Part shown: piece after piece, positions 1 to 57,513 of the stretch
Layout of the letters: each line of letters starts with the position of its first letter
Numbering within the stretch: position 1 is the stretch's first letter
DNA from: Escherichia coli
Lineage (GTDB): Bacteria > Pseudomonadota > Gammaproteobacteria > Enterobacterales > Enterobacteriaceae
DNA length: 64,000 nt
Assembly: GCF_022846255.1 (NCBI RefSeq)
Contig: NZ_AP025682.1
Strand: one strand, 5' to 3'
Notes under the pieces: model-generated
What the model was told of the DNA's origin: nothing
Database searches by the model: none
What the model saw: the letters and a program-made list of their open reading frames with translations, nothing else
Translations under genes and position numbers: made by a program

Positions 1-479
1 GCGTGCCGAGAAAGCAGAGAACAGGATAAGGAAGCTGTACCCAAAGCCAGAGTACACCAAGCCCAAACCACGTGAGCCAGTAGCGAGGATGCAGAAACTC
101 GCGGGAAAATTTGCATTTTGGAAACATAGTTACCTTCTGTAGATACGAATTGTTGTATCGCAGAAGATTCCATGTCGACAGCGGTACACTCAATTGATTA
201 GGCCATCATGTACGACAATGGTTCCTGTAAAGAGTGTAAAGACTAGTCAGGACATAACCACGAGGAGCATGAATGCGGTATCTGTACTTTATCACTCGCT
301 GACTGCTTTCAGCTACTGATTATTAATCGTGCAAAGTAAATATTTTTCCGTACGTAACAGTCTTGCATTTAACATGCTGTTTTGATTGATGCTTAGCAAA
401 AATTGCCAGAGGTTAAGGATTGTCTTACTATTAAAGTGACTGAAGTTACAGGTTTTTTAGCGCGGCAGGAGGTTGAGCT

Positions 480-722
480 ATGATTTATTTATGGATGTTT
501 CTCGCCCTGTGTATTGTCTGCGTAAGCGGATACATCGGTCAGGTACTGAACATGGTATCGGCGATCTCTTCTTTCTTCGGCATGGTGATCCTCGCTGCAC
601 TCATTTATTACTTCACCATGTGGTTAACTGGCGGTAATGAACTGGTGACGGGGATATTTATGTTTCTTGCCCCGGCTTGTGGCTTGATGATTCGCTTTAT
701 GGTGGGGTATGGCAGGCGATAG
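480..722 (+). CDS. yfdY: small inner-membrane protein YfdY
   Basis: 80-aa ORF with two hydrophobic helices; sequence and synteny match K-12 yfdY as recalled. Confidence 0.7.
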   Translation: MIYLWMFLALCIVCVSGYIGQVLNMVSAISSFFGMVILAALIYYFTMWLTGGNELVTGIFMFLAPACGLMIRFMVGYGRR

Positions 723-798
723 TGGGTCAGGATGGCTCATTTGGGCAGGTGTTCACATCAGCATCAGACATGATTGTTCACCTGCCAGGTGACAGACG

Positions 799-1074
799 CT
801 ATCGCAAAGGATGAATGAGATAATTCGCCTTTGTCGGATAAGTAGACGTGATGTCTTCTGTGAGGTTTAATGGTGGTGCATCTTCTCTCATCTTAAACAA
901 AATCGCCTGTGATGGCTGAAGTTTTGTAGAATGCGTTGTCGTCATCACTGACGTTTTTTCTGTCTCTTTATAGCTCGCCTCACTACCACCACCAGAAATA
1001 GAAAATGCAAAAACATTGCATGCCATAATAGAGACAAATAAAAATAAGCTAAAAAGCATTAAGTTTACTTTCAT
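799..1074 (-). CDS. ypdI: small lipoprotein YpdI
   Basis: 91-aa ORF with signal peptide and Cys after the hydrophobic core; position between yfdY and yfdX. Confidence 0.6.
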   Translation of the reverse strand: MKVNLMLFSLFLFVSIMACNVFAFSISGGGSEASYKETEKTSVMTTTHSTKLQPSQAILFKMREDAPPLNLTEDITSTYPTKANYLIHPLR

Positions 1075-1215
1075 AGAAAATATCCTGAAAATGGTTCACT
1101 GAAAACCTACGATGTTATGGCTGTATTTATATTTAATTAATCAGTATTTACATCGATATAATAAATGACATATCTTTGTGGTATATAAGAATAGTTCTCT
1201 GCGACAGGAAGCAGA

Positions 1216-1233
1216 TTCCTACAACTGTAAGAC
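1216..1233. promoter_or_regulatory. EvgA-box-like palindrome TTCCTACAACTGTAAGAC upstream of yfdX
   Basis: 17 of 18 match to the EvgA consensus TTCYTACA-NN-TGTARGAA; a second half-site TGTAAGA lies at 1264-1270. Confidence 0.5.
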
Positions 1234-1368
1234 TAAAAGCGGCTTTGCGATAATAACTACAGTTGTAAGATAACCCTTTCAAAATGTCCGTTGCTCTCTG
1301 ATTTCTCATTTCATGCTCACCCAATATGATGGCGGCGTTTTCTAAAACTGTTAAAGAATGAGGTAAGT

Positions 1369-2001
1369 ATGAAACGTTTAATTATGGCTACTATGGTCAC
1401 AGCAATTCTGGCATCTTCAACTGTATGGGCTGCTGATAATGCACCGGTAGCGGCACAACAGCAAACTCAGCAAGTTAAGCAAACCCAGAAAACGGCAGCA
1501 GCAGAGCGTATCTCTGAACAAGGTTTATATGCGATGCGTGACGTGCAGGTAGCGCGCCTGGCTCTGTTTCATGGCGATCCGGAAAAGGCAAAAGAACTGA
1601 CCAATGAAGCTTCCGCTTTGCTGTCAGATGATAGTACCGAATGGGCAAAGTTCGCTAAGCCAGGTAAAAAGACCAACGTCAATGATGACCAATATATTGT
1701 CATTAATGCATCTGTCGGAATTTCTGAGAGTTATGTAGCGACACCCGAAAAAGAAGCCGCGATAAAAATTGCCAACGAAAAAATGGCGAAAGGGGATAAA
1801 AAGGGTGCAATGGAAGAGCTTCGCCTGGCCGGTGTTGGTGTAATGGAAAACCAATATTTGATGCCGCTTAAACAGACTCGTAATGCACTTGCTGATGCGC
1901 AGAAACTGCTTGATAAAAAGCAATACTACGAGGCAAACCTGGCGCTTAAAGGTGCGGAAGATGGAATCATCGTTGATAGCGAAGCACTGTTTGTGAACTA
2001 A
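1369..2001 (+). CDS. yfdX: periplasmic protein YfdX (EvgA-regulated)
   Basis: 210-aa ORF with N-terminal signal peptide; synteny upstream of frc. Confidence 0.8.
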
Positions 2002-2244
2002 ACCTGACAGGCAATATATTGAGGTAAAGGATTTAACTCCCTCCAGTCGACAATTTTTTATGACCACAATACGACAGGTTGTGGTCATAAAATTATTTGG
2101 CGCTCGCGGTGCTATAAACTCGCATTTTATCTTCCTCAAAGTAAACCGCAATAATCCCATATTATCACAAATCATTTATTATGTTATATTTTATGGTACG
2201 CTTTAAATAGTGTAATCATAACCTTACTTGTAAATCACTGACAC

Positions 2245-2262
2245 TTCTTACAGTTGTAAGAA
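2245..2262. promoter_or_regulatory. EvgA box, perfect palindrome TTCTTACAGTTGTAAGAA upstream of frc
   Basis: perfect 18-bp inverted repeat matching the EvgA binding consensus, about 250 bp upstream of the frc start. Confidence 0.6.
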
Positions 2263-2512
2263 TAACATCACAAATGTCGCGGCTCTCTCTGATTACCGCG
2301 AACCAATATTTATTATATTCTTCTTTTCGTCCTCACTACTTACCATGCAGAAAGGAATTGGAAGTAGCGATGAAATGATTTTCAGCACTTGATACAGGAA
2401 TTTAAAAATATCGAGTGCAGCTACGACGATATTTTGCAGATTATTTATAGAGGCGTTATGCCTTAAATAAACGCTAAATTAACACATATTTAATTAACTA
2501 ATAGGTATTGCT

Positions 2513-3763
2513 ATGTCAACTCCACTTCAAGGAATTAAAGTTCTCGATTTCACCGGTGTGCAATCTGGCCCATCTTGTACTCAAATGCTGGCCTGGTTTG
2601 GCGCTGACGTCATTAAAATTGAACGTCCCGGCGTTGGTGACGTAACGCGCCACCAGCTGCGAGATATTCCTGATATCGATGCGCTTTACTTCACCATGCT
2701 TAACAGTAACAAACGTTCTATTGAATTAAATACCAAAACAGCGGAAGGCAAAGAGGTAATGGAAAAGCTGATCCGCGAAGCTGATATCTTAGTCGAGAAC
2801 TTTCATCCAGGGGCCATTGATCATATGGGCTTCACCTGGGAGCATATTCAAGAAATCAATCCACGTCTGATTTTTGGTTCGATCAAAGGGTTTGATGAGT
2901 GTTCGCCTTATGTGAATGTAAAAGCCTATGAAAACGTTGCTCAGGCAGCGGGTGGCGCGGCATCTACTACAGGTTTTTGGGACGGTCCGCCGCTGGTAAG
3001 CGCTGCAGCGTTGGGTGACAGCAACACCGGAATGCATTTGCTGATCGGTTTACTTGCTGCTTTGCTGCATCGCGAAAAAACGGGGCGTGGGCAACGAGTC
3101 ACCATGTCAATGCAGGATGCCGTGTTGAACCTTTGCCGCGTGAAATTACGCGACCAGCAGCGTCTCGATAAGTTGGGGTATCTGGAAGAATACCCGCAGT
3201 ATCCGAATGGCACATTTGGTGATGCAGTTCCCCGCGGTGGTAATGCGGGTGGTGGCGGTCAGCCTGGCTGGATCCTGAAATGTAAAGGCTGGGAAACCGA
3301 TCCTAACGCCTATATTTATTTCACTATTCAGGAGCAAAACTGGGAAAACACCTGTAAAGCCATCGGCAAACCAGAATGGATTACCGATCCGGCATACAGT
3401 ACAGCCCATGCCCGACAGCCACATATTTTCGATATTTTTGCTGAAATCGAAAAATACACTGTCACTATTGATAAACATGAAGCTGTGGCCTATTTGACTC
3501 AGTTTGATATTCCTTGTGCACCGGTTTTAAGTATGAAAGAAATTTCACTTGATCCCTCTTTGCGCCAAAGTGGCAGTGTTGTCGAAGTGGAACAACCGTT
3601 GCGTGGAAAATATCTGACAGTTGGTTGTCCAATGAAATTCTCTGCCTTTACGCCGGATATTAAAGCTGCTCCGCTATTAGGTGAACATACCGCTGCTGTA
3701 TTGCAGGAGCTGGGTTATAGCGACGATGAAATTGCTGCAATGAAGCAAAACCACGCCATCTGA
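2513..3763 (+). CDS. frc: formyl-CoA:oxalate CoA-transferase
   Basis: 416-aa family III CoA-transferase matching E. coli Frc (YfdW) over full length as recalled. Confidence 0.95.
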
Positions 3764-3816
3764 TATTAACGGGGGCTTCTGGCTCCCAATTTATAAAAAT
3801 TTCGAGGTTATTAATC

Positions 3817-5511
3817 ATGTCAGATCAACTTCAAATGACAGATGGTATGCATATCATCGTTGAAGCATTAAAACAGAATAATATTGACACTATTTATGGT
3901 GTTGTAGGTATTCCTGTGACGGATATGGCGCGCCATGCCCAGGCGGAAGGCATTCGTTATATTGGTTTTCGTCATGAGCAGTCGGCAGGCTATGCCGCTG
4001 CAGCAAGCGGTTTTCTTACCCAAAAACCAGGGATCTGCCTGACAGTGTCTGCGCCAGGATTCCTCAATGGTTTGACCGCATTGGCCAATGCAACGGTAAA
4101 TGGTTTTCCGATGATCATGATTAGCGGCTCCAGCGACCGCGCGATCGTCGATCTCCAGCAAGGTGATTATGAAGAGCTGGACCAAATGAATGCGGCAAAA
4201 CCGTATGCCAAAGCAGCATTTCGCGTTAATCAGCCGCAGGATCTTGGCATTGCATTGGCACGCGCTATCCGGGTCTCAGTATCGGGTCGTCCTGGCGGTG
4301 TTTATCTTGATTTGCCAGCAAATGTCCTGGCCGCGACGATGGAAAAAGACGAAGCGTTAACCACGATTGTTAAAGTTGAAAATCCGTCGCCAGCATTATT
4401 GCCATGCCCGAAGTCAGTCACTAGCGCAATTTCGCTTTTAGCAAAAGCTGAACGACCATTAATTATCCTTGGCAAAGGCGCGGCGTATTCACAATCTGAT
4501 GAACAGCTTCGTGAATTTATTGAAAGTGCCCAGATTCCATTCCTGCCAATGTCTATGGCGAAAGGGATCCTCGAAGATACGCATCCACTTTCTGCGGCAG
4601 CTGCGCGTTCGTTTGCCCTGGCAAATGCTGACGTTGTCATGCTTGTTGGTGCACGACTGAATTGGTTACTGGCACACGGTAAAAAAGGATGGGCGGCAGA
4701 TACACAGTTTATTCAACTGGATATTGAACCGCAGGAAATTGACAGCAACCGCCCCATTGCTGTGCCAGTCGTTGGCGATATTGCATCCAGTATGCAAGGT
4801 ATGCTGGCAGAATTGAAACAAAACACATTTACGACTCCACTGGTGTGGCGCGATATTTTAAATATCCACAAGCAGCAAAATGCACAAAAAATGCATGAAA
4901 AGTTAAGTACAGATACCCAACCATTAAATTACTTTAATGCATTGAGTGCTGTGCGCGATGTTTTGCGCGAGAACCAGGATATTTATTTAGTTAATGAAGG
5001 GGCAAATACCCTGGATAATGCACGAAATATTATTGATATGTATAAACCACGTCGTCGTCTGGATTGTGGCACCTGGGGTGTCATGGGCATCGGTATGGGC
5101 TATGCCATCGGTGCTAGCGTGACCTCTGGTTCTCCGGTTGTCGCTATTGAAGGTGATAGTGCTTTTGGTTTCAGTGGGATGGAGATTGAAACGATTTGTC
5201 GATATAACCTGCCGGTGACGATCGTTATTTTTAATAATGGCGGCATCTACAGAGGAGACGGTGTTGACCTCAGCGGCGCTGGTGCACCATCGCCAACGGA
5301 TCTGTTGCACCATGCAAGGTATGACAAATTAATGGATGCGTTTCGTGGCGTTGGCTATAACGTCACCACGACAGATGAACTTCGTCATGCTTTAACCACC
5401 GGAATTCAGTCGCGCAAACCGACCATTATTAATGTGGTCATCGACCCAGCAGCAGGAACTGAAAGTGGCCATATTACCAAACTTAACCCAAAACAAGTCG
5501 CTGGTAATTAA
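3817..5511 (+). CDS. oxc: oxalyl-CoA decarboxylase (TPP-dependent)
   Basis: 564-aa ORF with thiamine-diphosphate motif GDSAFGFSGMEIETICRYNLPVTIVIFNNGG; synteny. Confidence 0.95.
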   Translation: MSDQLQMTDGMHIIVEALKQNNIDTIYGVVGIPVTDMARHAQAEGIRYIGFRHEQSAGYAAAASGFLTQKPGICLTVSAPGFLNGLTALANATVNGFPMIMISGSSDRAIVDLQQGDYEELDQMNAAKPYAKAAFRVNQPQDLGIALARAIRVSVSGRPGGVYLDLPANVLAATMEKDEALTTIVKVENPSPALLPCPKSVTSAISLLAKAERPLIILGKGAAYSQSDEQLREFIESAQIPFLPMSMAKGILEDTHPLSAAAARSFALANADVVMLVGARLNWLLAHGKKGWAADTQFIQLDIEPQEIDSNRPIAVPVVGDIASSMQGMLAELKQNTFTTPLVWRDILNIHKQQNAQKMHEKLSTDTQPLNYFNALSAVRDVLRENQDIYLVNEGANTLDNARNIIDMYKPRRRLDCGTWGVMGIGMGYAIGASVTSGSPVVAIEGDSAFGFSGMEIETICRYNLPVTIVIFNNGGIYRGDGVDLSGAGAPSPTDLLHHARYDKLMDAFRGVGYNVTTTDELRHALTTGIQSRKPTIINVVIDPAAGTESGHITKLNPKQVAGN

Positions 5512-5580
5512 ATACTGACATCGTCTCCTCTTGCCAACTTATTATGCGATGGTGAGGGGACCCTTATCGGAAATACTATT

Positions 5581-6525
5581 ATGCTAACATTTTTTATTGG
5601 CGATTTATTGCCTATTATCGTAATCATGCTGTTGGGTTATTTTAGCGGCAGACGAGAAACTTTTTCAGAAGATCAAGCCCGGGCATTTAATAAACTGGTA
5701 TTAAACTACGCTCTTCCTGCGGCTCTATTTGTTTCTATTACCAGGGCAAACAGGGAAATGATTTTTGCGGACACTCGCCTGACCCTTGTATCACTTGTGG
5801 TTATTGTCGGATGTTTCTTTTTCTCCTGGTTCGGTTGCTACAAATTTTTTAAACGTACCCATGCAGAAGCAGCAGTATGTGCATTAATTGCAGGTTCACC
5901 TACCATTGGATTCCTGGGGTTTGCAGTTCTCGATCCTATTTATGGTGATTCCGTATCAACAGGTTTAGTGGTAGCAATTATTTCTATTATTGTTAACGCA
6001 ATTACTATTCCTATTGGTCTGTATTTGCTGAATCCTTCCTCAGGAGCGGATGGTAAGAAGAATAGTAATCTGAGCGCATTAATTTCTGCGGCAAAGGAGC
6101 CAGTAGTATGGGCACCTGTTCTGGCAACGATCCTGGTGCTGGTTGGGGTAAAAATTCCGGCAGCATGGGACCCAACCTTTAATCTGATTGCGAAGGCTAA
6201 CTCAGGGGTAGCGGTATTCGCTGCGGGGTTGACTCTGGCTGCACATAAATTCGAGTTCAGTGCCGAAATTGCTTATAACACTTTCCTGAAGCTGATTCTG
6301 ATGCCACTGGCGCTGCTTCTCGTCGGTATGGCATGTCATTTGAATAGCGAACATTTGCAGATGATGGTACTGGCAGGCGCATTACCGCCGGCATTCTCCG
6401 GAATCATTATTGCCAGCCGGTTTAATGTCTACACCCGCACTGGTACAGCGTCATTGGCTGTGAGCGTACTGGGTTTTGTCGTCACGGCTCCTTTGTGGAT
6501 TTATGTCAGTCGACTGGTTTCATAA
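5581..6525 (+). CDS. yfdV: AEC-family membrane transporter
   Basis: 314-aa polytopic membrane protein; synteny between oxc and yfdE. Confidence 0.85.
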
Positions 6526-6597
6526 TTAATCATGTTATTGATTTTACATAAATGCCGAAGTGTCTTTTCACCTTCGGCTTTTTCAAGGCATAAGCAA

Positions 6598-7743
6598 ATG
6601 ACAAATAATGAATGCAAAGGGCCGTTTGAAGGCTTATTAGTTATCGATATGACGCATGTCCTTAATGGGCCTTTCGGAACTCAACTTCTTTGTAATATGG
6701 GTGCAAGGGTAATTAAAGTTGAGCCGCCGGGTCATGGTGATGATACCCGCACATTTGGTCCCTATGTGGATGGACAGTCACTCTATTACAGTTTTATTAA
6801 TCATGGCAAAGAGAGTGTGGTTCTTGATTTAAAGAATGATCACGATAAAAGTATATTTATAAATATGCTTAAACAAGCTGATGTATTAGCTGAGAATTTT
6901 CGCCCAGGTACAATGGAAAAACTCGGGTTTTCATGGGAAAGGTTACAAGAAATCAACCCGCGCCTTATATATGCTTCATCGTCAGGTTTCGGACATACCG
7001 GTCCGCTAAAAGATGCTCCTGCCTACGATACCATCATTCAGGCAATGAGCGGGATAATGATGGAAACAGGATACCCTGATGCTCCGCCAGTGCGCGTTGG
7101 TACCTCTCTTGCGGATCTCTGTGGCGGTGTTTATTTATTCGGTGGAATAGTGAGTGCACTTTATGGCCGCGAAAAGAGCCAGAGAGGTGCGCATGTCGAT
7201 ATAGCGATGTTTGATGCCACTCTGAGTTTTCTGGAGCATGGACTGATGGCATATATCGCGACTGGGAAGTCACCACAACGCCTGGGAAATCGCCATCCCT
7301 ACATGGCACCTTTTGATGTTTTCGATACTCAGGATAAGCCGATTACGATTTGTTGTGGTAATGACAAGCTTTTTTCTGCGTTATGCCAGGCACTGGAGCT
7401 TACGGAACTGGTTAATGATCCCCGATTTAGCAGCAATATTTTACGCGTACATAACCAGGCTATTCTTAAAGAATATATTGAGCGGACGTTAAAAACGCAG
7501 GTAGCTGAAGTTTGGTTAGCCAGAATACATGAAGTTGGTGTGCCCGTCGCGCCGTTATTAAGTGTGGCTGAGGCCATTAATTTACCACAAACTCAGGCGA
7601 GAAATATGTTGATTGAAGCCGGGGGAATAATGATGCCGGGTAATCCGATAAAAATCAGCGGCTGCGCGGACCCGCATGTTATGCCGGGAGCGGCAACGCT
7701 CGACCAGCATGGGGAACAAATTCGCCAGGAGTTCTCATCATAA
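6598..7743 (+). CDS. yfdE: acetyl-CoA:oxalate CoA-transferase
   Basis: family III CoA-transferase paralog of Frc; start placed at MTNNECKGPF (381 aa) rather than the upstream ORF start at 6532. Confidence 0.9.
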   Translation: MTNNECKGPFEGLLVIDMTHVLNGPFGTQLLCNMGARVIKVEPPGHGDDTRTFGPYVDGQSLYYSFINHGKESVVLDLKNDHDKSIFINMLKQADVLAENFRPGTMEKLGFSWERLQEINPRLIYASSSGFGHTGPLKDAPAYDTIIQAMSGIMMETGYPDAPPVRVGTSLADLCGGVYLFGGIVSALYGREKSQRGAHVDIAMFDATLSFLEHGLMAYIATGKSPQRLGNRHPYMAPFDVFDTQDKPITICCGNDKLFSALCQALELTELVNDPRFSSNILRVHNQAILKEYIERTLKTQVAEVWLARIHEVGVPVAPLLSVAEAINLPQTQARNMLIEAGGIMMPGNPIKISGCADPHVMPGAATLDQHGEQIRQEFSS

Positions 7744-7765
7744 ATGTAAGATGTGCTGGTAAATA

Positions 7766-7792
7766 GCTCCCACATTTGAACATTGTGGGAGC
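7766..7792. terminator. hairpin between convergent yfdE and evgS
   Basis: 9-bp stem GCTCCCACA / TGTGGGAGC with 9-nt loop in the 55-bp gap between two convergent genes. Confidence 0.5.
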
Positions 7793-7798
7793 CGCTAT

Positions 7799-10700
7799 TT
7801 AGTCATTTTGCTGACAGAAAACAGTAATCTCCTGGTCCAGCTCTGCAATGTGTTCTTTTACAGAGTTCAGCAACTGAAGAATTTCAGGCTTACTGTCATC
7901 TGAAACAGGTGTTATTTCTAACTGGTGGCTAATATTAATCAACTTTTGCAAATTCAGGATGTTAGCCGCACCGTGGATGCGATGAATACACTGATGGAAA
8001 GTTCTGTTATCGCCAGCTTCTAGTGCATGAAACGCAGCGGGTAGATCTTTATGCGTTTCATGCTGGAAAGTCATGAGAATCTCCTGCATCAGTTGTAGAT
8101 CATTCGCCGTATTATTCTTCAGGGCCTCGATATCAAGGTGGCGATACTGAGGTGCAATATGCGCAACCTGGTGTAACTGACTTAAATGTGTTTTCAGTAC
8201 ATCCAGAGTCAACGGTTTGAACAAACATAAGTTCATGCCGCAATTTAACCCTTTTTCACGTTCGTTAGCCTGTGCGTTGGCTGTAAGCCCCCAGATGGGT
8301 AAGGAAGAATTTTGCTCACGGAGTTTGCGAGTCAACTCAAAACCATCCATATTCGGCATATTAACGTCAGTAATAAGCAGATCATAATGTTGCATACTGA
8401 CTTTGTGTAGCGCTTGCACACCATCAGTGGCTTCATCAACATCATATCCTAATAGATTTAGCTGGCGTTTGAGTAATAGCCTGTTGGTCGGATGATCATC
8501 CGCGATTAATATGCTCAACTTTTCAGGGAGTGTTATAGGTTGTTCTGCTTTTGCCTCGACAGCCGCCACTTGTTGGGTAATTTCTACCGGGATTGTGATC
8601 GTAAATATCGTTCCTATGCCTGGATGACTTTCTAATGACAAATCGCCCTGCATGTTTTTAATTAATTCTTTGCAGATCATTAAGCCTAAACCAGAACCTG
8701 TTTGCTGACGACCTGCACTTGTTTGGCTATAGCGTTTAAACAGTTGTTGTTGTTCTTCCTGAGATAATCCACTTCCAGAATCCATAATCGTCATTTTGAT
8801 AACAGCGTGGTTGTCATCAATGTGACCCAGGGAGGTCGTAATTTTTACTGCCCCCTCGGTAGTAAATTTGAGAGCATTACTCAGTAAATTAGATAAGACC
8901 TGCTTAAACGCCTGAGGGTCGATCTTAACCAGGTAGCGTTCAGGAAGCGTACTGCTGCAACTTAATGCGATCGATTTGCTTGCAGCAATCGCAGCGAAAG
9001 AGTGACAAGTGTTCTGGACTAAAGTAGGGATATCGACCCATTGTGGTTGAAGTTGATAGTTACCCGATTCAATTTTGTCGACATCAAGGATTTCACCAAT
9101 TAAGCCGAGGAGTGATTGTCCGGTGGCGTAGGCAAGTGAAATCGCCTCCACCCGTTGTTCCTTGCTAAGACCAGAACCCGACAGTAGTTCCAGGAAGCCC
9201 ATAATGGAGCTTATTGGTGTTCTTATTTCGTGACTCATTGTTGCCAGAAACTGGCTTTTTGCGACAGTTGCATTGATCGCTTTATTTCTCTCTACTTCGA
9301 GTGCATGAATTAAATCACGCGTCTCGGTAATATCTTGCCAACCACAAATATAAACAGCATGTTCGCTTGCTGGCAGATTACATAAGGTATGCCAGTGATT
9401 AATGCATCTTTTCTCGATGCCATTATCAATTTCAAATACCTGTGTGTATATTGTTCGGTTTTCTTTCGTTTCTGCTGTGACTTCATGCGTATTAGAAAAA
9501 ACATCTTTAAAGGGGGATTCACTGTTTTCTAATGGTAACATTGCATTTTTATAGTAATCAGCAGTGAAATAATGTTCAAATGCACTATTGTGACTAATGA
9601 CATTACCTTGCCAGTTTACAACATAAGTTGGATTCGGTAAGGAATCCGAGAGCGCTTTCCGGAATGATATTTGGTTTTCTAAATCACCCTGAATAACTTT
9701 ACGACGACGAACTGAGCGTAACAGGTAGAATCCCCATAAAAGGCTACTGCCAACTAATAAAACGGATAATGTCGTAACAATATAAAATTGCTCGCTATAG
9801 AGGTCCCATGTGTCAATGGTCACATTGGGCATTTTAATCCATTTTTCGGTCAGGCGCAGAACTTCGCTTGGGGGAATTGCATTCAGTGCTTTATTAATAA
9901 TATCCTTAAGTTCCGGTTCTCCGCGAGGAAAAGCGAACGAAAGTGATGCATTCTGAACGCCGGGAATAAGAAAATGATAAAGTTCATTAGGATAGTAATG
10001 GTCGATCATGTAACGCGAATTTAACTGTGTCGCGACCAGAGCATCAAGTTCACCTTCCTTGACCTTGTGAAATGCAGCGCTGGCGTTATCGACTTTTATC
10101 CACTCTACCTCCGGATACATCTCTTTTAATTGCGAATGAAGCTCATAATAATATGGAATGGCAACTTTCATTCCTTTTTTTAATGTTTGTTCACTGTCAG
10201 GCGCTTTTTGCATGACAAAAACGTAAGGCGTTGTTATGAAGACTTCAGCAAATGAAACATTATTTTCTCGATCTTCACTATAAATAGCGGCGGGCAATAT
10301 ATCCCATCCACCGGGGTTAAGCTGTGTCCCAGCATGAATATTATGTGAAACGGTGATCGGAGAAAAATTTAAACCTGTTTGCAAGGTAATAATATTAAGA
10401 ATATCACCCATCACGCCCCGAACTGAGCCAGTTTCATCTGTCATAGAATAGGGTGGCGAGTAAGGATTTTCCAGCACCTTTAAATCGGGATGCTGCTTAA
10501 TCCACTGTTTTTCATGTTCAGTGAGTTCTAATGGTTTGTTCAGAAAGGCCAGGTTTCCTGTATCAAGCCAATTTTGTGATACTTCATAGCGAACTTCATT
10601 TGTTAAAGCATCAACAAATCGATTGAGTACTTCATTAAGAACGATTGAATCTTTTCTGGTTAATAAAAAGTTAAATTGACGCGGTGAGTTATAATACTTC

Positions 10701-11392
10701 ACTACATTTAAGGAGTGAGTAAAATAACGGGAAATCATACTGCTGGTAATGATGTTACTACCAATAAAGTAATCATTCTGTCCGGCTGAGACGGATGCTA
10801 ATGCCTGATATAAATTTGTAAAAGAGATAATTGTTGCTTTTGGAAATGATTGATGAATTACCTCGTCTGGGGGATAATTTGCTACTCGAGCAATATTTAC
10901 TGGTTTTGATGAGGTAAGCGGTCGCATTGAATCGTGAAGGGTAGTGACCAGCGCCGGAAAGGTAATTATCAGAGGATTAGTTGCAGCAATGTCATCATTA
11001 AGAGGCGGCGAAGCAACTAAATGTGATAACACTATATCAACTTCACCGTCTTCCAGCGCGTCCATTGCTTTTTGATGATCTGCGTATTCCCGGAGTGTTA
11101 ATTTGATATTTAACGCTCTTTTTAAAAGATTTAAATAATCAGCATTAATACCACGAATCCGTTGCTGCGAATCGGTATGCAACAACGTAGCTGTTTGGGA
11201 CTTGTGTACTGCAATCACAAGATTTTTTTTGCTCGCGAGCCAACGTAATTCCTTGTTGCTCAGACGTAGTGGATCAAGTGTGACACGGTTGTTACTACTG
11301 ATGCCACGATATTCGATGTAATCTCCGTCTGCGAAACTTATGGTCGACCAAAGACCACAACAGAGAAGAAAAATATAGGGTAAAAACTTCAT
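7799..11392 (-). CDS. evgS: hybrid sensor histidine kinase EvgS
   Basis: 1197 aa; periplasmic solute-binding-like domains, HisKA/HATPase, receiver and HPt domains. Confidence 0.95.
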   Translation of the reverse strand: MKFLPYIFLLCCGLWSTISFADGDYIEYRGISSNNRVTLDPLRLSNKELRWLASKKNLVIAVHKSQTATLLHTDSQQRIRGINADYLNLLKRALNIKLTLREYADHQKAMDALEDGEVDIVLSHLVASPPLNDDIAATNPLIITFPALVTTLHDSMRPLTSSKPVNIARVANYPPDEVIHQSFPKATIISFTNLYQALASVSAGQNDYFIGSNIITSSMISRYFTHSLNVVKYYNSPRQFNFLLTRKDSIVLNEVLNRFVDALTNEVRYEVSQNWLDTGNLAFLNKPLELTEHEKQWIKQHPDLKVLENPYSPPYSMTDETGSVRGVMGDILNIITLQTGLNFSPITVSHNIHAGTQLNPGGWDILPAAIYSEDRENNVSFAEVFITTPYVFVMQKAPDSEQTLKKGMKVAIPYYYELHSQLKEMYPEVEWIKVDNASAAFHKVKEGELDALVATQLNSRYMIDHYYPNELYHFLIPGVQNASLSFAFPRGEPELKDIINKALNAIPPSEVLRLTEKWIKMPNVTIDTWDLYSEQFYIVTTLSVLLVGSSLLWGFYLLRSVRRRKVIQGDLENQISFRKALSDSLPNPTYVVNWQGNVISHNSAFEHYFTADYYKNAMLPLENSESPFKDVFSNTHEVTAETKENRTIYTQVFEIDNGIEKRCINHWHTLCNLPASEHAVYICGWQDITETRDLIHALEVERNKAINATVAKSQFLATMSHEIRTPISSIMGFLELLSGSGLSKEQRVEAISLAYATGQSLLGLIGEILDVDKIESGNYQLQPQWVDIPTLVQNTCHSFAAIAASKSIALSCSSTLPERYLVKIDPQAFKQVLSNLLSNALKFTTEGAVKITTSLGHIDDNHAVIKMTIMDSGSGLSQEEQQQLFKRYSQTSAGRQQTGSGLGLMICKELIKNMQGDLSLESHPGIGTIFTITIPVEITQQVAAVEAKAEQPITLPEKLSILIADDHPTNRLLLKRQLNLLGYDVDEATDGVQALHKVSMQHYDLLITDVNMPNMDGFELTRKLREQNSSLPIWGLTANAQANEREKGLNCGMNLCLFKPLTLDVLKTHLSQLHQVAHIAPQYRHLDIEALKNNTANDLQLMQEILMTFQHETHKDLPAAFHALEAGDNRTFHQCIHRIHGAANILNLQKLINISHQLEITPVSDDSKPEILQLLNSVKEHIAELDQEITVFCQQND

Positions 11393-11396
11393 GTGG

Positions 11397-12011
11397 TTAG
11401 CCGATTTTGTTACGTTGTGCGAATGTGTAAAGATCCATCAGTGATTTGCATTCTAATTTTTCCATCAAGCGACTTTTATAAGTGCTGACAGTTTTGTTGC
11501 TGATGAACATTTTTTCAGCAATGTCATTATTATCCTTGCCATCAAGAATATACCGCATGACACTAATTTCTTGTTTCGATAAGGAGTCGAGTTTTTGCTG
11601 GTCGGACGTTAAACTTCCAACAAACCGGTTGAGAGAGAAGGGGAAATAGCAGTAGCCATTTTTTGCAGCTTCAATAGCTGCAATGATATTGTTCATGCCT
11701 TCTTTTTTACTCACGAAACCATTAGCGCCAGCATCAGCACAATGTTTCCCGTAAAAATGGTCATTTTTAGCGGAGACAATAATAATAATTCCGCTATATT
11801 GGCGCTTTCTCAGCGTTTCTAACACCTGGATACCGTTAACTCCGGGGATATCGACATCAATGATGACGATATCAGGCTTAAGTGTTTCCACCCGCTGAAC
11901 GGCGCTTCCGCCTTCAGTCAACTCTGCTAAGATTTCAATATCGTTTTTGATCAATAAATTACGAATTGCTGCGATAGCAAGAGGATGGTCATCAATAATT
12001 ATTGCGTTCAT
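11397..12011 (-). CDS. evgA: response regulator EvgA (NarL/FixJ family)
   Basis: 204 aa; receiver domain plus C-terminal LuxR-type HTH; immediately upstream of evgS. Confidence 0.95.
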   Translation of the reverse strand: MNAIIIDDHPLAIAAIRNLLIKNDIEILAELTEGGSAVQRVETLKPDIVIIDVDIPGVNGIQVLETLRKRQYSGIIIIVSAKNDHFYGKHCADAGANGFVSKKEGMNNIIAAIEAAKNGYCYFPFSLNRFVGSLTSDQQKLDSLSKQEISVMRYILDGKDNNDIAEKMFISNKTVSTYKSRLMEKLECKSLMDLYTFAQRNKIG

Positions 12012-30626: not shown

Positions 30627-31670
30627 TTACAGGTCAGCGTTTGTTTTTTGTTGTTGGGTAGCGGTTTTTATGGGGGTTCCCAGGTTTTTAGTAAACCACT
30701 CAACAACTCTGTTTATAATAATTGGCTGATACCATGTATTATCTCCATGCTCAGCCCCTTCTACCAGAACGTACTCAGCGTTATCGCCGTTCTTCTTCAA
30801 CATCCTGAATAGTTTGGCGCTTTGCTCAGGTGAAACCAGAGTGTCTTTGCTACCATGCATAATAAGAAATGGGGGGTTTACTCCTTTCATATGTCCGATT
30901 GGACTGGCGTTTAGCGCTTTTTCTTTTGACGCTGTTATGGGGGCTCCCGCAAAACTTCTGAATGCAGGGCCATTGATCATTAAGGCTTCGGTTACGGCAG
31001 GAGATCGATGAACCTCCTGCACAGATTCAGGGAACCCCTCGCCAATATTCAACAAGTCAGAAATCCCATAAAGTGTGGCAACTGCCTGAACATCTGCTGA
31101 TTGCTGAAGAAAGTCACCTTTATCAAAGGTTTTGTCACCATTTGTAGTTCCCATCATCTGGGCAAGCCATCCACCGGCAGAGTCACCCAGAACTCCGATT
31201 CTTTGAGGATCAATCCCATAATCGCTGGCATGTTCTCTCAAGTAACGTATTGCAGCTTTCCCATCCTCAACTGGTGCTGGAAATGTATCAGGAATTGTTC
31301 TGTATTCTACAGCGGCCACAACAAAACCAGCTTCAGCCAGAGCCATTCTCATTTCAATAAATTTGTCATGTTCAGAAGACATGAATCCGCCGCCGGGATA
31401 ATAAATAATGGCTGGTTTTAAATCATTTGTTCGTGGGACAAGAACTGACATGTGAAGCTGTCTGACAGAACGAGTTCCTTTTATCTGGGAATAAACAACA
31501 TCACCAATGAGATCGACCTGGTTTCTGGTCGGTGAAACACTAATGATATCTGCACCCGGGGTGTAACCAGGAAGATTAGTCTGGACAGGTGTTGCACAAC
31601 TCCCGACCGACATGGCCATTGACATACCATACAATAGTGTTGCAGATGATAATATCTTGTTAATTTTCAT
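30627..31670 (-). CDS. secreted esterase/lipase lipoprotein, HSL-type alpha/beta hydrolase
   Basis: 347 aa; signal peptide with lipobox SVGSC; oxyanion motif YYPGGGF; nucleophile elbow GDSAGG; C-terminal HGSKD and AEHGDN. Confidence 0.75.
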   Translation of the reverse strand: MKINKILSSATLLYGMSMAMSVGSCATPVQTNLPGYTPGADIISVSPTRNQVDLIGDVVYSQIKGTRSVRQLHMSVLVPRTNDLKPAIIYYPGGGFMSSEHDKFIEMRMALAEAGFVVAAVEYRTIPDTFPAPVEDGKAAIRYLREHASDYGIDPQRIGVLGDSAGGWLAQMMGTTNGDKTFDKGDFLQQSADVQAVATLYGISDLLNIGEGFPESVQEVHRSPAVTEALMINGPAFRSFAGAPITASKEKALNASPIGHMKGVNPPFLIMHGSKDTLVSPEQSAKLFRMLKKNGDNAEYVLVEGAEHGDNTWYQPIIINRVVEWFTKNLGTPIKTATQQQKTNADL

Positions 31671-34076: not shown

Positions 34077-35174
34077 TTAGAACTGGTAAACCAGTCCTAC
34101 GGCAACGATGTCGTCAGTGCTTACACCAAGTGCTTTAGTGAAGTCGTTTTTGTCAAGCAGGTTGATCTTGTAATCAACGAAAGTAGACATGTTTTTGTTG
34201 AAGTAATAAGTTGCACCTACATCAACATATTTGACTAAGTCCTGATCGCCCCATACTCCAAGATCCTTACCTTTAGATTGCAGGTAAGCAACGGACGGAC
34301 GCAGACCGAAATCGAACTGATATTGTGCAACAGCTTCGAAGTTTTGAGCTTTATTAGCAACGAAGTGATCAGCAAATACAGTCATATTCTGGGTTTCAGA
34401 ATAGGTAGTGGCCAGGTAAATGTTGTTAGCGTCATATTTCAGACCTGCGGCCCAAATTTCTGCATTTTTACCGGAAGCAAATACTTCAGGAAGAACTTTG
34501 CCTGCATTGACTTGAGTGTCGGTACGATCAGATTTCGCATAAGTCGCACCAATGCCGAATCCTTCGTATTCATAGGTAGCAGAGAAACCGAATCCATCAC
34601 CGTTACCTTCGGTGTAGTTATCGAAATCGCTACGATCGTTTTTACCTTGGTACTGAGCAGCAAAGTTCAGACCATCAACCAGACCAAAGAAGTCGTTGTT
34701 ACGGTAAGTTGCAACACCAGTTGCACGTTGAGTCATGAACACGTCGGTTTGAGTCCAAGTGTCACCACCGAATTCTGGCAGGACGTCAGTCCACGCACCG
34801 ATGTCGTATGCTACACCGTAGTTACGACCGTAATCGATGGAACCGTAGTCACCGAATTTCAGGCCTGCAAATGCAAGACGGGTTTTGTCTTTGGCGGAAC
34901 CTTGAGATTCAGCGCGGTTGCCTTTGAATTCATATTCCCACTGACCGAAACCAGTCAGTTGATCGTTGATTTGGGTTTCACCTTTGAAGCCCAGACGAAC
35001 ATAAGTAGTATCACCATCATCTGCATCGTTAGAGGAAAAGTAGTGCTTGGCATTAACTTTCCCGTACAGATCCAGCTTGTTACTGTCTTTATTATAAATT
35101 TCAGCTGCCTGAGCAGACATCGCCATCAGTACTGATGCAGCTACAGCAGAAATTGCCACTGTTAATTTTTTCAT
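34077..35174 (-). CDS. nmpC: outer-membrane general porin (NmpC/OmpC family), apparently intact
   Basis: 365 aa from [11 protein letters not shown]; signal peptide; C-terminal F; long AT-rich upstream region 35175-35716. Confidence 0.9.
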
Positions 35175-53462: not shown

Positions 53463-56400
53463 ATGGGTAAAGGCAGCAGTAAGGGGCATACCCCGCGCGA
53501 AGCGAAGGACAACCTGAAATCCACGCAGTTGCTGAGTGTGATTGATGCCATCAGTGAAGGGCCGGTTGAAGGTCCGGTGGATGGATTAAAAAGCGTGCTG
53601 CTGAACAGTACGCCGGTGCTGGACAGTGAGGGGAATACCAACATCTCCGGTGTCACGGTGGTGTTCCGGGCAGGTGAGCAGGAGCAGACACCGCCGGAGG
53701 GATTTGAATCCTCCGGTTCCGAGACGGTGCTGGGTACGGAAGTGAAATACGACACGCCGATCACCCGCACCATCACGTCGGCAAACATCGACCGTCTGCG
53801 CTTTACCTTCGGTGTGCAGGCACTGGTGGAAACCACCTCAAAGGGGGACAGGAATCCATCGGAAGTCCGCCTGCTGGTTCAGATACAACGTAACGGTGGC
53901 TGGGTGACGGAAAAAGACATCACCATTAAGGGCAAAACCACCTCGCAGTATCTGGCCTCGGTGGTGGTGGATAACCTGCCGCCGCGCCCGTTTAATATCC
54001 GGATGCGCAGGATGACGCCGGACAGCACCACAGACCAGCTGCAGAACAAAACGCTCTGGTCGTCATACACCGAAATCATCGATGTGAAACAGTGCTACCC
54101 GAACACGGCACTGGTCGGCGTGCAGGTGGATTCGGAGCAGTTCGGCAGCCAGCAGGTGAGCCGTAATTATCATCTGCGCGGGCGTATTCTGCAGGTGCCG
54201 TCGAACTATAACCCGCAGACGCGGCAATACAGCGGTATCTGGGACGGAACGTTTAAGCCAGCATACAGCAACAACATGGCCTGGTGTCTGTGGGATATGC
54301 TGACCCACCCGCGCTACGGCATGGGGAAACGTCTTGGTGCGGCAGATGTGGATAAATGGGCGCTGTATGTCATCGGCCAGTATTGCGACCAGTCAGTGCC
54401 GGACGGTTTTGGCGGCACGGAGCCGCGCATCACCTGTAATGCGTACCTGACCACACAGCGCAAGGCGTGGGATGTGCTCAGTGATTTCTGCTCGGCGATG
54501 CGCTGTATGCCGGTATGGAACGGGCAGACGCTGACGTTCGTGCAGGACCGACCGTCGGATAAGGTGTGGACCTATAACCGCAGTAATGTGGTGATGCCGG
54601 ATGATGGCGCGCCGTTCCGCTACAGCTTCAGCGCCCTGAAAGACCGCCATAATGCCGTTGAGGTGAACTGGATTGACCCGAACAACGGCTGGGAGACGGC
54701 GACAGAGCTTGTGGAGGACACGCAGGCCATTGCCCGTTACGGTCGTAACGTCACGAAGATGGATGCTTTTGGCTGTACCAGCCGGGGGCAGGCACACCGC
54801 GCCGGGCTGTGGCTGATTAAAACAGAACTGCTGGAAACGCAGACCGTGGACTTCAGCGTGGGCGCAGAAGGGCTTCGCCATGTGCCGGGCGATGTCATTG
54901 AAATCTGTGATGATGACTATGCCGGTATCAGCACCGGCGGGCGCGTGCTGGCGGTAAACAGCCAGACCCGGACGCTGACGCTCGACCGTGAAATCACGCT
55001 GCCATCCTCCGGCACCACGCTGATAAGCCTGGTTGACGGGCAGGGGAGTCCGGTCAGCGTGGAGGTCCAGTCCGTCACCGACGGTGTGAAGGTGAAAGTG
55101 AGCCGGGTTCCTGACGGAATAGCCGAATACAGCGTGTGGGGGCTGAAGCTGCCGACGCTGCGTCAGCGCCTGTTCCGCTGTGTGAGTATCCGTGAGAATG
55201 ATGACGGCACGTATGCCATCACCGCCGTGCAGCATGTACCGGAAAAAGAAGCCATCGTGGATAACGGGGCACACTTTGACGGCGACCGGAGCGGCACGGT
55301 GAATGGTGTCACGCCGCCAGCGGTGCAGCACCTGACCGCCGAAGTCATTGCAGACAGCGGGGAGTATCAGGTACTGGCCCGCTGGGACACGCCGAAGGTG
55401 GTGAAGGGCGTGAGCTTCCTGCTTCGCCTGACCGTGACAGCGGATGACGGCAGTGAGCGGCTGGTCAGCACGGCCCGGACGACGGAAACCACATACCGCT
55501 TCACACAACTGGCACCGGGGAACTACAGGCTGACAGTCCGGGCAGTAAATGCCCGGGGGCAGCAGGGAGACCCGGCGTCTGTATCGTTCCGGATTGCCGC
55601 ACCGGCAGCACCGTCGCGGATTGAGCTGACGCCGGGTTATTTTCAGATAACCGCCACGCCACATCTTGCGGTTTATGACCCGACGGTACAGTTTGAGTTC
55701 TGGTTTTCGGAAAAGCGGATTGCCGATATCCGGCAGGTTGAAACCACAGCGCGCTATCTTGGCACGGCGCTGTACTGGATAGCCGCCAGTATCAATATCA
55801 GGCCGGGCTATGATTATTATTTTTACGTTCGCAGTGTGAACACCGTTGGCAAATCTGCATTCGTGGAGGCTGTCGGTCAGGCGAGCGATGATGCGGAAGG
55901 TTACCTGGATTTTTTCAAAGGCAAGATAACCGAATCCCATCTCGGCAAGGAGCTGCTGGAAAAAGTCGAACTGACGGAGGGTAACGCCAGCAAACTGGAG
56001 GAGTTTTCGAAAGAGTGGAAGGACGCCATTGATAAATGGAATGCCATGTGGGGCGTCAAAATTGAGCAGACCAGAGACGGCAAACATTATGTCACGGGTA
56101 TTGGTCTCAGCATGGAGGACACGGTGAGCCAGTTTCTGGTTGCCGCTAACCGTATCGCGTTTATTGATCCGGCAAACGGGAATGAAACGCCGATGTTTGT
56201 GGCGCAGGGCAATCAGATATTCATGAACGACGTGTTCCTGAAACGCCTGACGGCCCCCACCATTACCAGTGGTGGAAATCCACCGGCATTTTCCCTGACA
56301 CCGGACGGAAAGCTGACTGCTAAAAATGCGGATATCAGTGGCAGTGTGAATGCGAACGCCGGGACGCTCAACAACGTCACGATAAATGAGAACTGTACGA

Positions 56401-56846
56401 TTAAAGGGAAACTGTCAGCCAATCAGATTGAAGGCGATATTGTCAAAACAGTGGGTAAGGCTTTCCCGCGGGATTCCCGTGCACCGGAGCAGTGGCCATC
56501 AGGGACCATTACCGTCAGAGTCTATGACGATCAGCCTTTTGACCGGCAAATTGTTATTCCCGCGGTGGCGTTTCGCGGAGCTAAACATGAGCGGGAGAAT
56601 AGCGATACTTATTCGTCATGCCGCCTGATAGTGAAGAAAAACGGTGCTGAAATTTATAACCGTACCGCACAGGATAGTACGCTGATTTATACAGGTGTTA
56701 TTGATATGCCTGCAGGCAGTGGCGTAATGACACTGGAGTTTTCTGTATCAGCATGGTGGGTAAATGGTTGGTATCCCACAGCAAGTATCAGCGATTTGCT
56801 GGTTGTGGTGATGAAGAAATCCACTGCAGGTATCACGATTAGCTGA
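53463..56846 (+). CDS. J: central tail fibre / host-specificity protein J
   Basis: 1127 aa; first ~960 aa lambda gpJ-like, last ~160 aa divergent. Confidence 0.95.
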
Positions 56847-56864
56847 ATTTTATAACCCATATAC

Positions 56865-56890
56865 GGGCGCCAGAAATGGCGCCTTTTTTA
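56865..56890 (+). terminator. rho-independent terminator after J
   Basis: GGGCGCCAGAAATGGCGCC followed by TTTTTT. Confidence 0.6.
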
Positions 56891-56913
56891 TTGCAGAAAA
56901 GCGAGAGGTAATT

Positions 56914-57513
56914 ATGCGTAAAGTTTGTGCCGCCATTTTGTCCGCCGCCATCTGTCTGGTCGTATCCGGTGCGCCTGCATGGGCATCTGAGCAGCAGGCC
57001 ACGCTGAGCGCGGGGTATCTTCATGCCCGGACGACCGCTCCCGGTAGCGATAATCTGAACGGGATTAACGTGAAATACCGTTATGAATTTACGGACACGC
57101 TGGGGCTGATTACGTCCTTCAGTTATGCCGACGCCGAAGATGAACATAAAACGCATTACAGCGATACCCGCTGGCATGAAGATTCCGTGCGTAACCGCTG
57201 GTTCAGCGTAATGGCGGGGCCGTCTGTGCGTGTGAATGAATGGTTCAGTGCGTATGCGATGGGGGGTGTGGCTTACAGCCGTGTGTCGACTTTTTCCGGG
57301 GATTATCTCCGCGTAACTGACAACACGGGGAAAACGCACGATGTGCTGACCGGAAGTGATGACGGTCGCCACAGCAACACGTCTCTGGCGTGGGGGGCTG
57401 GCGTGCAGTTTAACCCGACCGAATCCGTGGCCATTGATATTGCTTATGAAGGCTCCGGCAGTGGTGACTGGCGCACTGACGGTTTCATCGTGGGTGTCGG
57501 TTATAAATTCTGA
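56914..57513 (+). CDS. lom: outer-membrane protein Lom (Ail/OmpX family)
   Basis: 199 aa with signal peptide and C-terminal YKF. Confidence 0.9.
   Translation: MRKVCAAILSAAICLVVSGAPAWASEQQATLSAGYLHARTTAPGSDNLNGINVKYRYEFTDTLGLITSFSYADAEDEHKTHYSDTRWHEDSVRNRWFSVMAGPSVRVNEWFSAYAMGGVAYSRVSTFSGDYLRVTDNTGKTHDVLTGSDDGRHSNTSLAWGAGVQFNPTESVAIDIAYEGSGSGDWRTDGFIVGVGYKF

Follow-up and report, generated by a model that had tools for sequence, protein, structure and literature searches.

The tail-tip protein J of the Escherichia coli prophage analysed here is a mosaic, in which a lambda-type body is followed, over the final 135-165 or so residues, by a receptor-binding domain (RBD) of the class found in the lambda gpJ chimera 1A2 and in phage VT1-Sakai, in place of the LamB-binding domain of lambda. 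By analogy with 1A2, the receptor is quite likely to be OmpC, and LamB would be dispensable. All positions refer to the window, i.e. the whole 64-kb stretch of DNA that was analysed.

Mosaic structure of J

J is encoded in a single uninterrupted frame, as determined from the list of open reading frames and the translation. The NCBIfam model lambda_TipJ (NF049904) covers it from aa 1 to 1127 with 2313 bits against a cutoff of 1950, and the Pfam domains found in it are Phage-tail_3, FNIII-A_GpJ, Ig_J, Ig_J_second, Phage_Tail_Tip and Ig_GpJ_C. Judged by its sequence, J is the lambda TipJ/gpJ tail-tip protein, with a matching domain order of hub, FNIII, fibre and C-terminal RBD. The parts of the body, named after Ge et al. 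2024, are the hub domains, the FNIII domains, the alpha-helical shaft and most of the beta-prism fibre (PMC11101478). The gene and its segments are as follows.

53463-56846, plus strand: gene J, tail-tip / central tail fibre protein, 1127 aa (ORF, translation, NCBIfam lambda_TipJ, Pfam)
53463-56339, plus strand: lambda-like body, aa 1 to about 959 (96.6% amino acid identity to lambda gpJ over aa 1-965)
56340-56450, plus strand: junction segment, aa about 960-996, the distal end of the fibre prism directly above the RBD (alignment, dip in DNA identity)
56451-56843, plus strand: RBD, aa 997-1127, Ig-like beta-sandwich of the 1A2/VT1-Sakai class, predicted receptor OmpC (PF12421, alignment, AlphaFold/Foldseek)

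The lambda reference was gpJ from NC_001416, aligned globally, and DNA was compared in 100-nt windows. Overall amino acid identity is 89%, with 936/969 positions identical over aa 1-965, 46% identity over aa 966-1127 and 42.6% over aa 981-1127. An earlier note on this DNA had described the first 960 or so residues as close to lambda and the C-terminus as unlike it; both statements are borne out, and a full-length match to lambda J is refuted by the alignment. The only gap in the body is a 4-aa deletion near aa 888. Up to position 56350, DNA identity to lambda is 0.90-1.00 per 100-nt window with one exception of 0.83, which contains a 12-nt deletion; past 56350 it falls to 0.70, 0.59, 0.59, 0.53 and 0.52. 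Since DNA identity falls from about 94% to 52-59% from 56351 onwards, position 56350, at which the earlier note had started the divergent segment, is essentially the breakpoint. The first 30 or so residues of that segment (aa 965-995) retain about 75% identity to lambda, and strong divergence is confined to aa ~997-1127, the stretch covered by Pfam Ig_GpJ_C.

Class, fold and selection of the receptor-binding domain

PF12421 (Ig_GpJ_C) matches aa 997-1127 with 133.3 bits against a cutoff of 26.2, spanning profile positions 1-135 of 135; to go by this profile match, the C-terminal domain is a genuine gpJ receptor-binding domain. The non-lambda receptor-binding region proposed earlier for this end of J thus finds its counterpart in a PF12421 domain of the VT1-Sakai/1A2 class. 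In the AlphaFold2 model, pLDDT is mostly 77-96 across the domain (monomer mean 76). Foldseek returned 9wcb, 9wca, 8xck and 8xcj as the top four structures (E 3e-19 to 3e-17, TM about 0.7), and as modelled the domain has the Ig-like beta-sandwich fold of the solved gpJ RBDs. Four loops are predicted to face the receptor, an assignment based on the monomer model and strand order, not on coordinates or a complex.

56460-56501, plus strand: predicted receptor-facing loop L1, aa about 1000-1013, 14 residues, site of indels between classes (model, alignment)
56577-56603, plus strand: predicted receptor-facing loop L2, aa about 1039-1047, GAKHERENS (model, alignment)
56670-56678, plus strand: predicted receptor-facing loop L3, aa about 1070-1072, QDS (model, alignment)
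56757-56795, plus strand: predicted receptor-facing loop L4, aa about 1099-1111, 13 residues (model, alignment)

L1, an inter-strand loop in the model, is hypervariable and carries indels among RBD classes in the alignment. Directly downstream of L2, after aa ~1049, A8 and 434-type domains have an insertion of 5-6 aa. All classes share the motifs DD..FDRQ, NG and DMP.G.G unchanged, in loops predicted to face the fibre.

Alignment of the last 175 residues, which covered lambda, 434 and OmpC-binding types as had been proposed earlier, placed J nearest to PhiR47_1 (93% identity) and VT1-Sakai (88%), followed by A8/4A7 (70-71%), and distant from lambda (50%) and the 434 type (48-51%). VT1-Sakai, a phage of E. 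coli O157:H7 (O157 Sp15), aligns over these 175 residues with zero indels and 21 differing residues, and it resembles the present prophage in RBD class, in a junction at lambda aa ~964, and in the lom gene and terminator downstream. The 1A2 protein is a lambda gpJ chimera swapped at lambda aa 964 (Brodel et al., Nature 2024, PMC11338833). Its DNA in the supplement of PMC11338833 is machine-read with dropped bases and was rebuilt by frameshift-tolerant alignment. The rebuilt sequence equals VT1-Sakai at 175/179 readable residues and has the VT1-Sakai residue at 20/20 readable sites distinguishing J from VT1-Sakai; within this reconstruction, the RBD of VT1-Sakai J is the same domain as that of gpJ 1A2. 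J itself matches the segment swapped in 1A2 at 147/168 positions (87.5%) with equal length, and its RBD belongs, as aligned, to the 1A2/VT1-Sakai class.

Two features set J apart from 1A2 and VT1-Sakai. One is the set of 21 substitutions per 175 aa, which cluster at aa 1044-1049, 1070-1072, 1086-1088 and 1099-1102, partly within predicted loops. The other is the junction: over aa 961-993, J has 2 differences from A8 and 6 from VT1-Sakai/PhiR47_1, and its DNA identity to VT1-Sakai and PhiR47_1 dips to 0.77-0.79 at 56394-56468. In the alignment, this segment resembles the A8 and lambda types more than VT1-Sakai or PhiR47_1.

The nearest sequenced phage is Escherichia phage PhiR47_1 (PV340566), with 94% DNA identity over the entire J. 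Its last 175 residues show 13 differences, and both the 13-residue loop motif and WWVNGW are identical. Its record lists ECOR13 as host; a literature search on PhiR phages for a measured PhiR47_1 receptor returned nothing relevant. The nearest solved structure is A8 gpJ (PDB 9wca, closed; 9wcb, open and bound to EDL933 OmpC), whose natural relatives include phage 4A7. A8 and J share the Ig-like RBD fold and a conserved C-terminal strand ending in (S/T)IS, but identity in the last 175 aa is 70%, L1 of A8 is shortened by a 4-aa deletion, and 5 aa are inserted just after its L2. With these two loop indels J is not collinear with the A8 type and falls into a different class. Phage 434 J (lambda h434) and the Stx2a phage WGPS6 likewise combine a lambda-like J with a swapped, OmpC-using C-terminal RBD. 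Their domain has longer L1 and L2 loops and several indels relative to J, with 39-40% identity over 148 aa by tblastn, and J is not close enough to the lambda h434/WGPS6 C-terminus to be of the 434 type. The OmpC-dependent EHEC siphophage phi330 was considered as a same-class reference and dropped, its published nearest relative WGPS6 having a 434-type RBD; phi330 was judged via WGPS6 J.

Cryptic prophages are common in E. coli, a mutation splits J in VT1-Sakai itself, and the window stops short of the far prophage end, all of which would suit a defective prophage in which J persists as a relic free of selection and no longer serves in receptor binding. This is very improbable, given that the J frame is intact over 1127 aa with a full-length TipJ match and that the neighbouring tail genes (lom, stf, tfa and the K and I homologues) are all intact. 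Moreover, dN/dS of the RBD against PhiR47_1 and VT1-Sakai is 0.10-0.14 (dS 0.38-0.51), which indicates a functional domain long maintained under purifying selection. The divergence of the C-terminus is therefore not decay, as the frame is intact and dN/dS is low.

Predicted receptor

The assignment of OmpC draws on 1A2, whose DNA delivery into a delta-lamB delta-ompC strain depends on ompC (from EDL933) being supplied (PMC11338833). Three lambda-like RBD classes, the 434, A8 and 1A2 types, have each been tied experimentally to OmpC (for 1A2, PMC11338833), and the 434 type, which is separate from the class of J, functions on K-12 OmpC. The proposal of the earlier note that the receptor is probably not LamB is strengthened by same-class 1A2 working via OmpC and by the nearest solved structure being a gpJ-OmpC complex. 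No receptor was named in that note; OmpC is the one to which these data point.

The lambda gpJ RBD-LamB complex (PDB 8xcj, 8xck; Ge et al. 2024) shares with J the first 960 or so residues, the domain family and the predicted trigger mechanism. J could accordingly be pictured as still using LamB, with its divergence representing neutral drift in a LamB-binding family, and phi21 J, with its own sequence, is natively LamB-using (PMC11336670). Such continuity is hardly to be expected, however, despite the common Pfam family and fold. Identity to the lambda RBD is only 43%; over lambda gpJ aa ~985-1132, including L1-L4, J has indels and other variable loops, and 1A2, of the same class, works without lamB and depends on OmpC (PMC11338833). 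In addition, the A8 domain, solved in complex with OmpC, is nearer to J in sequence than is lambda, whose receptor is LamB, with a PDB sequence search giving 1e-84 for 9wca/9wcb (A8 gpJ) versus 8e-64 for lambda.

The range of OmpC variants accepted differs between related classes. At the top MOI, 1A2 delivery was at least 76% for 20/23 E. coli OmpC variants and 0.9-2% for variants G1 (MG1655), G2 and G40, and A8 accepts K-12 OmpC, which 1A2 does not (PMC11338833). By analogy, J probably accepts most natural E. coli OmpC variants, not necessarily the K-12 type; the ompC gene of the host itself lies beyond the window. Sixteen of the differences from 1A2 lie inside the RBD core, and 8/16 of these are in predicted receptor-facing loops; by loop, L1 has 1 difference, the L2 region (aa 1044-1049) 4, L3 2 and L4 2. 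Because of the 21/175 substitutions and the 8/16 core ones in predicted loops, porin-variant specificity, and even the porin itself, could differ from 1A2. The proportion in loops is not significantly above the 29% expected (p = 0.06), nor is that of PhiR47_1 (4/8, p = 0.17), and as neither p value is significant no loop enrichment is claimed.

Altered loops could also direct the RBD to another outer-membrane protein altogether, such as OmpF, PhoE, an NmpC/Lc-type porin or a non-porin. The substitutions relative to 1A2/VT1-Sakai are clustered, in lambda and phi21 between one and four changes in J suffice for OmpF or OmpC to be used as well (PMC11336670), and binding to OmpC, OmpX and BtuB is reported for the J protein of Gifsy-1 (PMC12312913). 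Nevertheless we consider a different receptor unlikely: the J domain has the same length as that of 1A2, without indels and at 88% identity, purifying selection within the class is strong, the loop enrichment is not significant, and three lambda-like RBD classes each lead to OmpC.

With OmpC as receptor, the sequence of events can be sketched if the solved complexes of lambda gpJ with LamB and of A8 gpJ with OmpC are taken as analogues, together with the receptor-triggered opening of the tail tip described in PMC11101478. The variable bottom loops of the three RBDs of the J trimer would enter the extracellular mouth of the trimeric porin. Binding would push the RBDs apart, the beta-prism fibre would then twist and the helical shaft flip, and the tip would open to eject the DNA.

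Prophage porin, neighbouring genes and distribution

The porin gene and the features downstream of J are the following.

34077-35174, minus strand: porin gene lc, OmpC family, 365 aa from the MKK start (identity to PA-2 Lc, NCBIfam)
56865-56884, plus strand: terminator-like hairpin with T-run between J and lom (sequence, comparison with VT1-Sakai)
56914-57513, plus strand: lom, Ail/OmpX-family outer-membrane protein, 199 aa (NCBIfam OmpX and Rck families)
57572-60406, plus strand: side tail fibre gene stf, 944 aa (Pfam phage_tail_N, Phage_fiber_2, Collar)
60406-60990, plus strand: tfa, stf assembly protein (Pfam Caudo_TAP)

The porin is identical to Lc of phage PA-2 (J02580) at 358/365 residues (98%) and matches the NCBIfam OmpC subfamily with 530 bits against a cutoff of 484. 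Its position and orientation beside the lysis genes are as in PA-2, and conservation extends to the upstream region with the CAP site that J02580 annotates there. Both its near-identity and its place on the opposite strand, between the late regulator and the lysis genes, are those of an Lc/NmpC lambdoid-phage porin. Lysogens of PA-2 are said, from the work of Schnaitman in the 1970s-80s, to be the classic example of the OmpC receptor being swapped for the phage porin, with OmpC lowered. The remark in the earlier note that the porin could affect receptor availability is reasonable, and by analogy such a modification in the lysogen is possible; we know of no role of Lom in receptor availability. 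A more elaborate proposal would treat RBD and porin as a co-adapted pair for host range and exclusion, in which the loop substitutions common to J and PhiR47_1 relative to 1A2 retarget the tip to a non-OmpC porin, or to OmpC variants closed to 1A2, and Lc, as the porin matched to this tip, clears the receptor concerned from the surface of the lysogen. We regard this as decidedly unlikely.

In a survey of complete E. coli genomes, the 1A2/VT1-Sakai RBD class was present in about 62%. Among 5,426 such genomes there was no exact copy of the prophage or of the J allele, and the best match reached 95.6% across 83% of the tail region and 92.9% in the RBD; in a large protein collection, the best cluster representative was 94% identical. 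The kind of RBD is thus already known and very common, and the J described here is a new allele. Swapping of the J C-terminus is a classic route of receptor change among lambdoid phages, and with the 1A2 class lambda particles have already been redirected to OmpC so as to deliver genes in the gut. The swap seen here is genuine, though of an ordinary kind, and raises no new question. Its practical value lies in annotation: the label of this prophage can name an Lc porin and a tail tip that probably binds OmpC, not LamB. Together with its PhiR47_1-like relatives, the allele would add one more natural variant to a panel of OmpC-targeting J domains, if its range of OmpC variants were measured.

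Rfam and tRNA scans of the window gave nothing in or beside the J region. The hairpin between J and lom is identical in VT1-Sakai, with one base differing upstream of it, and lom occupies the same position as the annotated lom in lambda, PhiR47_1, VT1-Sakai and WGPS6. Further downstream, stf and tfa (57572-60990) are a second host-range determinant on the same tail as J.

Divergence of the J C-terminus from lambda

The features of the tail-tip gene J that bear on its receptor are as follows.

53463-56846, + strand: J, a single open reading frame of 1127 aa ending in the C-terminus quoted in the earlier note
J aa 845-968: PF09327, tail tip fibre (Pfam match)
J aa 997-1127: PF12421 (Ig_GpJ_C, "C-terminal receptor binding domain"; Pfam, 133 bits)

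From end to end, the protein matches the curated NCBI lambda_TipJ model (2313 bits, cutoff 1950), and it carries the expected Pfam series, of which these two domains are the last. Compared with lambda gpJ (NC_001416), amino acid identity is 96.6% for aa 1-965 and 42.6% for aa 981-1127, while DNA identity drops from 56351 onwards (~0.94, then 0.70, then 0.52-0.59). The earlier note was therefore correct in placing a divergent J C-terminus at 56350-56846; over its first ~30 residues that segment keeps ~75% likeness to lambda, and it is the Pfam receptor-binding domain (RBD) itself that diverges strongly.

In the fibre region, a 4-residue deletion was observed at aa ~888 (window ~56120-56135), where MEDTEEGKLSQ of lambda gpJ is replaced by MEDTVSQ. 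GC content declines along 54500-57000: it is ~0.60-0.64 in the J body as far as ~55700, ~0.50-0.52 from the distal fibre into the first part of the RBD, and as low as 0.44 at the 3' end of the RBD and in the J-lom spacer (56600-56899).

RBD classes and their receptors

A tblastn survey of the last 148 aa of J against 50,697 phage records revealed that lambda-like J proteins fall into four discrete identity groups.

RBD classes of lambda-like J proteins, with identity to the window J over 148 aa
Class I (the window's own), 88-93%: PhiR47_1, vB_EcoS-640R1, VT1-Sakai, PPompW prophages, many Stx1a/Stx2a phages, JLK-2012
Class II, 61-65%: 4A7, ev017, mEp460_4F5, CP-1639, YYZ-2008, PhiR30_1
Class III, 43%: lambda and close relatives
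Class IV, 39-40%: lambda h434, ev099, Perceval, phi458

A multiple alignment of J C-termini showed that all classes share the RBD framework and three invariant motifs (DD..FDRQ, NG, DMP.G.G), and diverge by substitutions and indels in the four intervening loops. Class I is very common in E. coli, being found in 3,884 of 5,426 complete genomes at megablast sensitivity (3,363 with at least 80% query coverage), with a median of two copies per genome having any. The exact window allele occurred in none of the 5,426, the top match having 92.9% DNA identity; in a large protein collection, matches were restricted to J fragments of E. coli, E. albertii and Shigella, the top cluster representative being 94% identical. 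The module to which the window RBD belongs is well known, characterised by experiment and extremely common; the window carries a new allele of it.

Brodel et al. (Nature 2024) fitted lambda gpJ with C-termini of E. coli prophages in place of its own sequence from aa 964 on and obtained two chimeras, A8 and 1A2. In delta-lamB delta-ompC cells, each delivered DNA only if a plasmid supplied ompC (PMC11338833). Since the supplementary DNA is machine-read text with dropped bases, the 1A2 C-terminus was rebuilt by frameshift-tolerant alignment. The rebuilt sequence agrees with the VT1-Sakai (O157 Sp15) J at 175 of the 179 residues that could be read and has the VT1-Sakai residue at all 20 readable sites where the window and VT1-Sakai differ, which identifies it as a VT1-Sakai-type, class I RBD. 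Over the swapped segment, the window is identical to 1A2 at 147/168 positions, without indels. At the top MOI, 1A2 delivery was at least 76% in 20 of 23 OmpC variants and just 0.9-2% for G1 (the MG1655 variant), G2 and G40; A8, unlike 1A2, functions on G1 and G2 (PMC11338833). A follow-up preprint employing 1A2 particles against O157 strains again gives OmpC as the receptor. In VT1-Sakai itself, the annotation (AP000400, 975-4447) shows the J gene broken into two parts by a mutation. This natural copy in O157 Sakai probably does not function, yet its C-terminal domain is active once transferred to lambda.

OmpC use is also conferred by phage 434 J (cited in PMC11101478) and is required by the EHEC siphophage phi330 (PMC12502783), whose nearest relative, WGPS6, has an RBD of 434 type. 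Three of the four classes are therefore tied experimentally to OmpC, and that of lambda to LamB. Structural searches point the same way: "A8 gpJ 713" (9wca, 9wcb) ranked first in the PDB sequence search (1e-84, vs ~1e-63 for lambda gpJ, 8xcj and 8iyk), and 9wcb holds an OmpC chain besides A8 gpJ. Modelled with AlphaFold2, the last 175 aa form an all-beta sandwich (mean pLDDT 76, most of the domain 77-96), with strong Foldseek matches only to 9wcb, 9wca, 8xck and 8xcj.

The proposal that the receptor is probably not LamB is supported, as same-class 1A2 delivers through OmpC in a delta-lamB background and the nearest structure is A8 gpJ-OmpC; continued use of LamB is very improbable. OmpC is most probably the receptor of the window J, and binding to another outer-membrane protein appears unlikely.

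Predicted docking and the window allele

In gpJ, hub domains, two FNIII domains, an alpha-helical shaft and a beta-prism fibre precede an Ig-like RBD, whose four bottom loops (L1-L4) enter the porin mouth; upon binding, the three RBDs spread, the prism twists, the shaft flips and the tip opens (Ge et al., PMC11101478). The same trigger is expected here because the upstream parts are all kept at ~97% identity, and the window J would dock on OmpC and open its tip as lambda gpJ does. The strand order in the model suggests the following receptor-facing loops.

J aa ~1000-1013: predicted loop L1
J aa ~1039-1047: predicted loop L2
J aa ~1070-1072: predicted loop L3
J aa ~1099-1111: predicted loop L4

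Between-class indels sit in L1, L4 and at the edges of L2 and L3, and the invariant motifs would fall in the opposite loops, adjoining the fibre.

Relative to 1A2, the window RBD has 21 substitutions in 175 aa, including Q1010R, R1044K, N1046H, S1047T, T1049I, Q1070L, S1072N, S1086H, V1088H, W1099L and G1102N. Half of the 16 in the RBD core lie in predicted bottom loops, an enrichment that is not significant (p = 0.06). With dN/dS of 0.10 vs PhiR47_1 and 0.14 vs VT1-Sakai, and dS of 0.38-0.51, the domain is under purifying selection and its alleles are old; that the window J is a relic devoid of current receptor function is very unlikely.

The ~35 residues above the RBD (56340-56450, + strand) are closer to A8/lambda-type J than to VT1-Sakai and PhiR47_1. 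Within this junction, aa 961-993 differ at 2 positions from the A8 type vs 6 from VT1-Sakai in the alignment, and at the DNA level this stretch is less like the class I relatives than its surroundings are, which in this small sample suggests a crossover into class I sequence at aa ~994-997, in the conserved NQIEGD(I/L)VKTV motif, and one differing from that in VT1-Sakai and PhiR47_1.

The prophage porin and neighbouring genes

Positions 1-12000 are E. coli chromosome, and the window beyond is a lambdoid prophage, with these features.

1-12000: evgS, oxc, frc, yfdE, yfdV (several human isolates match at 99.7% identity)
34077-35174, - strand: Lc-like porin, 358/365 aa (98%) identical to phage PA-2 Lc
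56865-56884: terminator-like hairpin downstream of J
56914-57513: lom, downstream of J
Past lom: side tail fibre (944 aa) and its assembly protein

According to work by Schnaitman and colleagues in the 1970s-80s, PA-2 reportedly adsorbs to OmpC, and its lysogens to produce Lc, with a drop in the levels of OmpC and OmpF. Lom is not known to influence receptor availability. Upstream of the porin (to ~35640), the PA-2 sequence is conserved, as is the CAP site that J02580 annotates there. This porin is present in 36 phage records, with a non-lambda (OmpC-type) RBD in every one whose J class could be assigned.

J class I: 2G7b
J class II: 4A7, ev017, PhiR29_2, PhiR30_1, Chlobot
J class IV: 434, ev099, ev243, Perceval, PhiR49_1

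This uncontrolled tally is in line with the proposal of the earlier note that the phage's own porin could affect receptor availability.

Other observations concern the flanking genes. An Rfam IS009 (RF02111) match lies at 60749-60947 (+) within tfa (60406-60990), scoring 229.5 bits vs a gathering score of 117. A SAM-methyltransferase-like ORF (61045-61713, minus strand) is followed by an 89-aa fragment (61770-62039) matching only the C-terminal half of a tail-fibre assembly protein; together (61045-62039) they look like the remnant of a second tail-fibre cassette. Past the tail-fibre genes, a 479-aa ORF (62434-63873, +) is without Pfam or NCBIfam match, and a 347-aa prophage ORF (30627-31670, -) has weak esterase/lipase family matches (best 3e-24, far below every cutoff).
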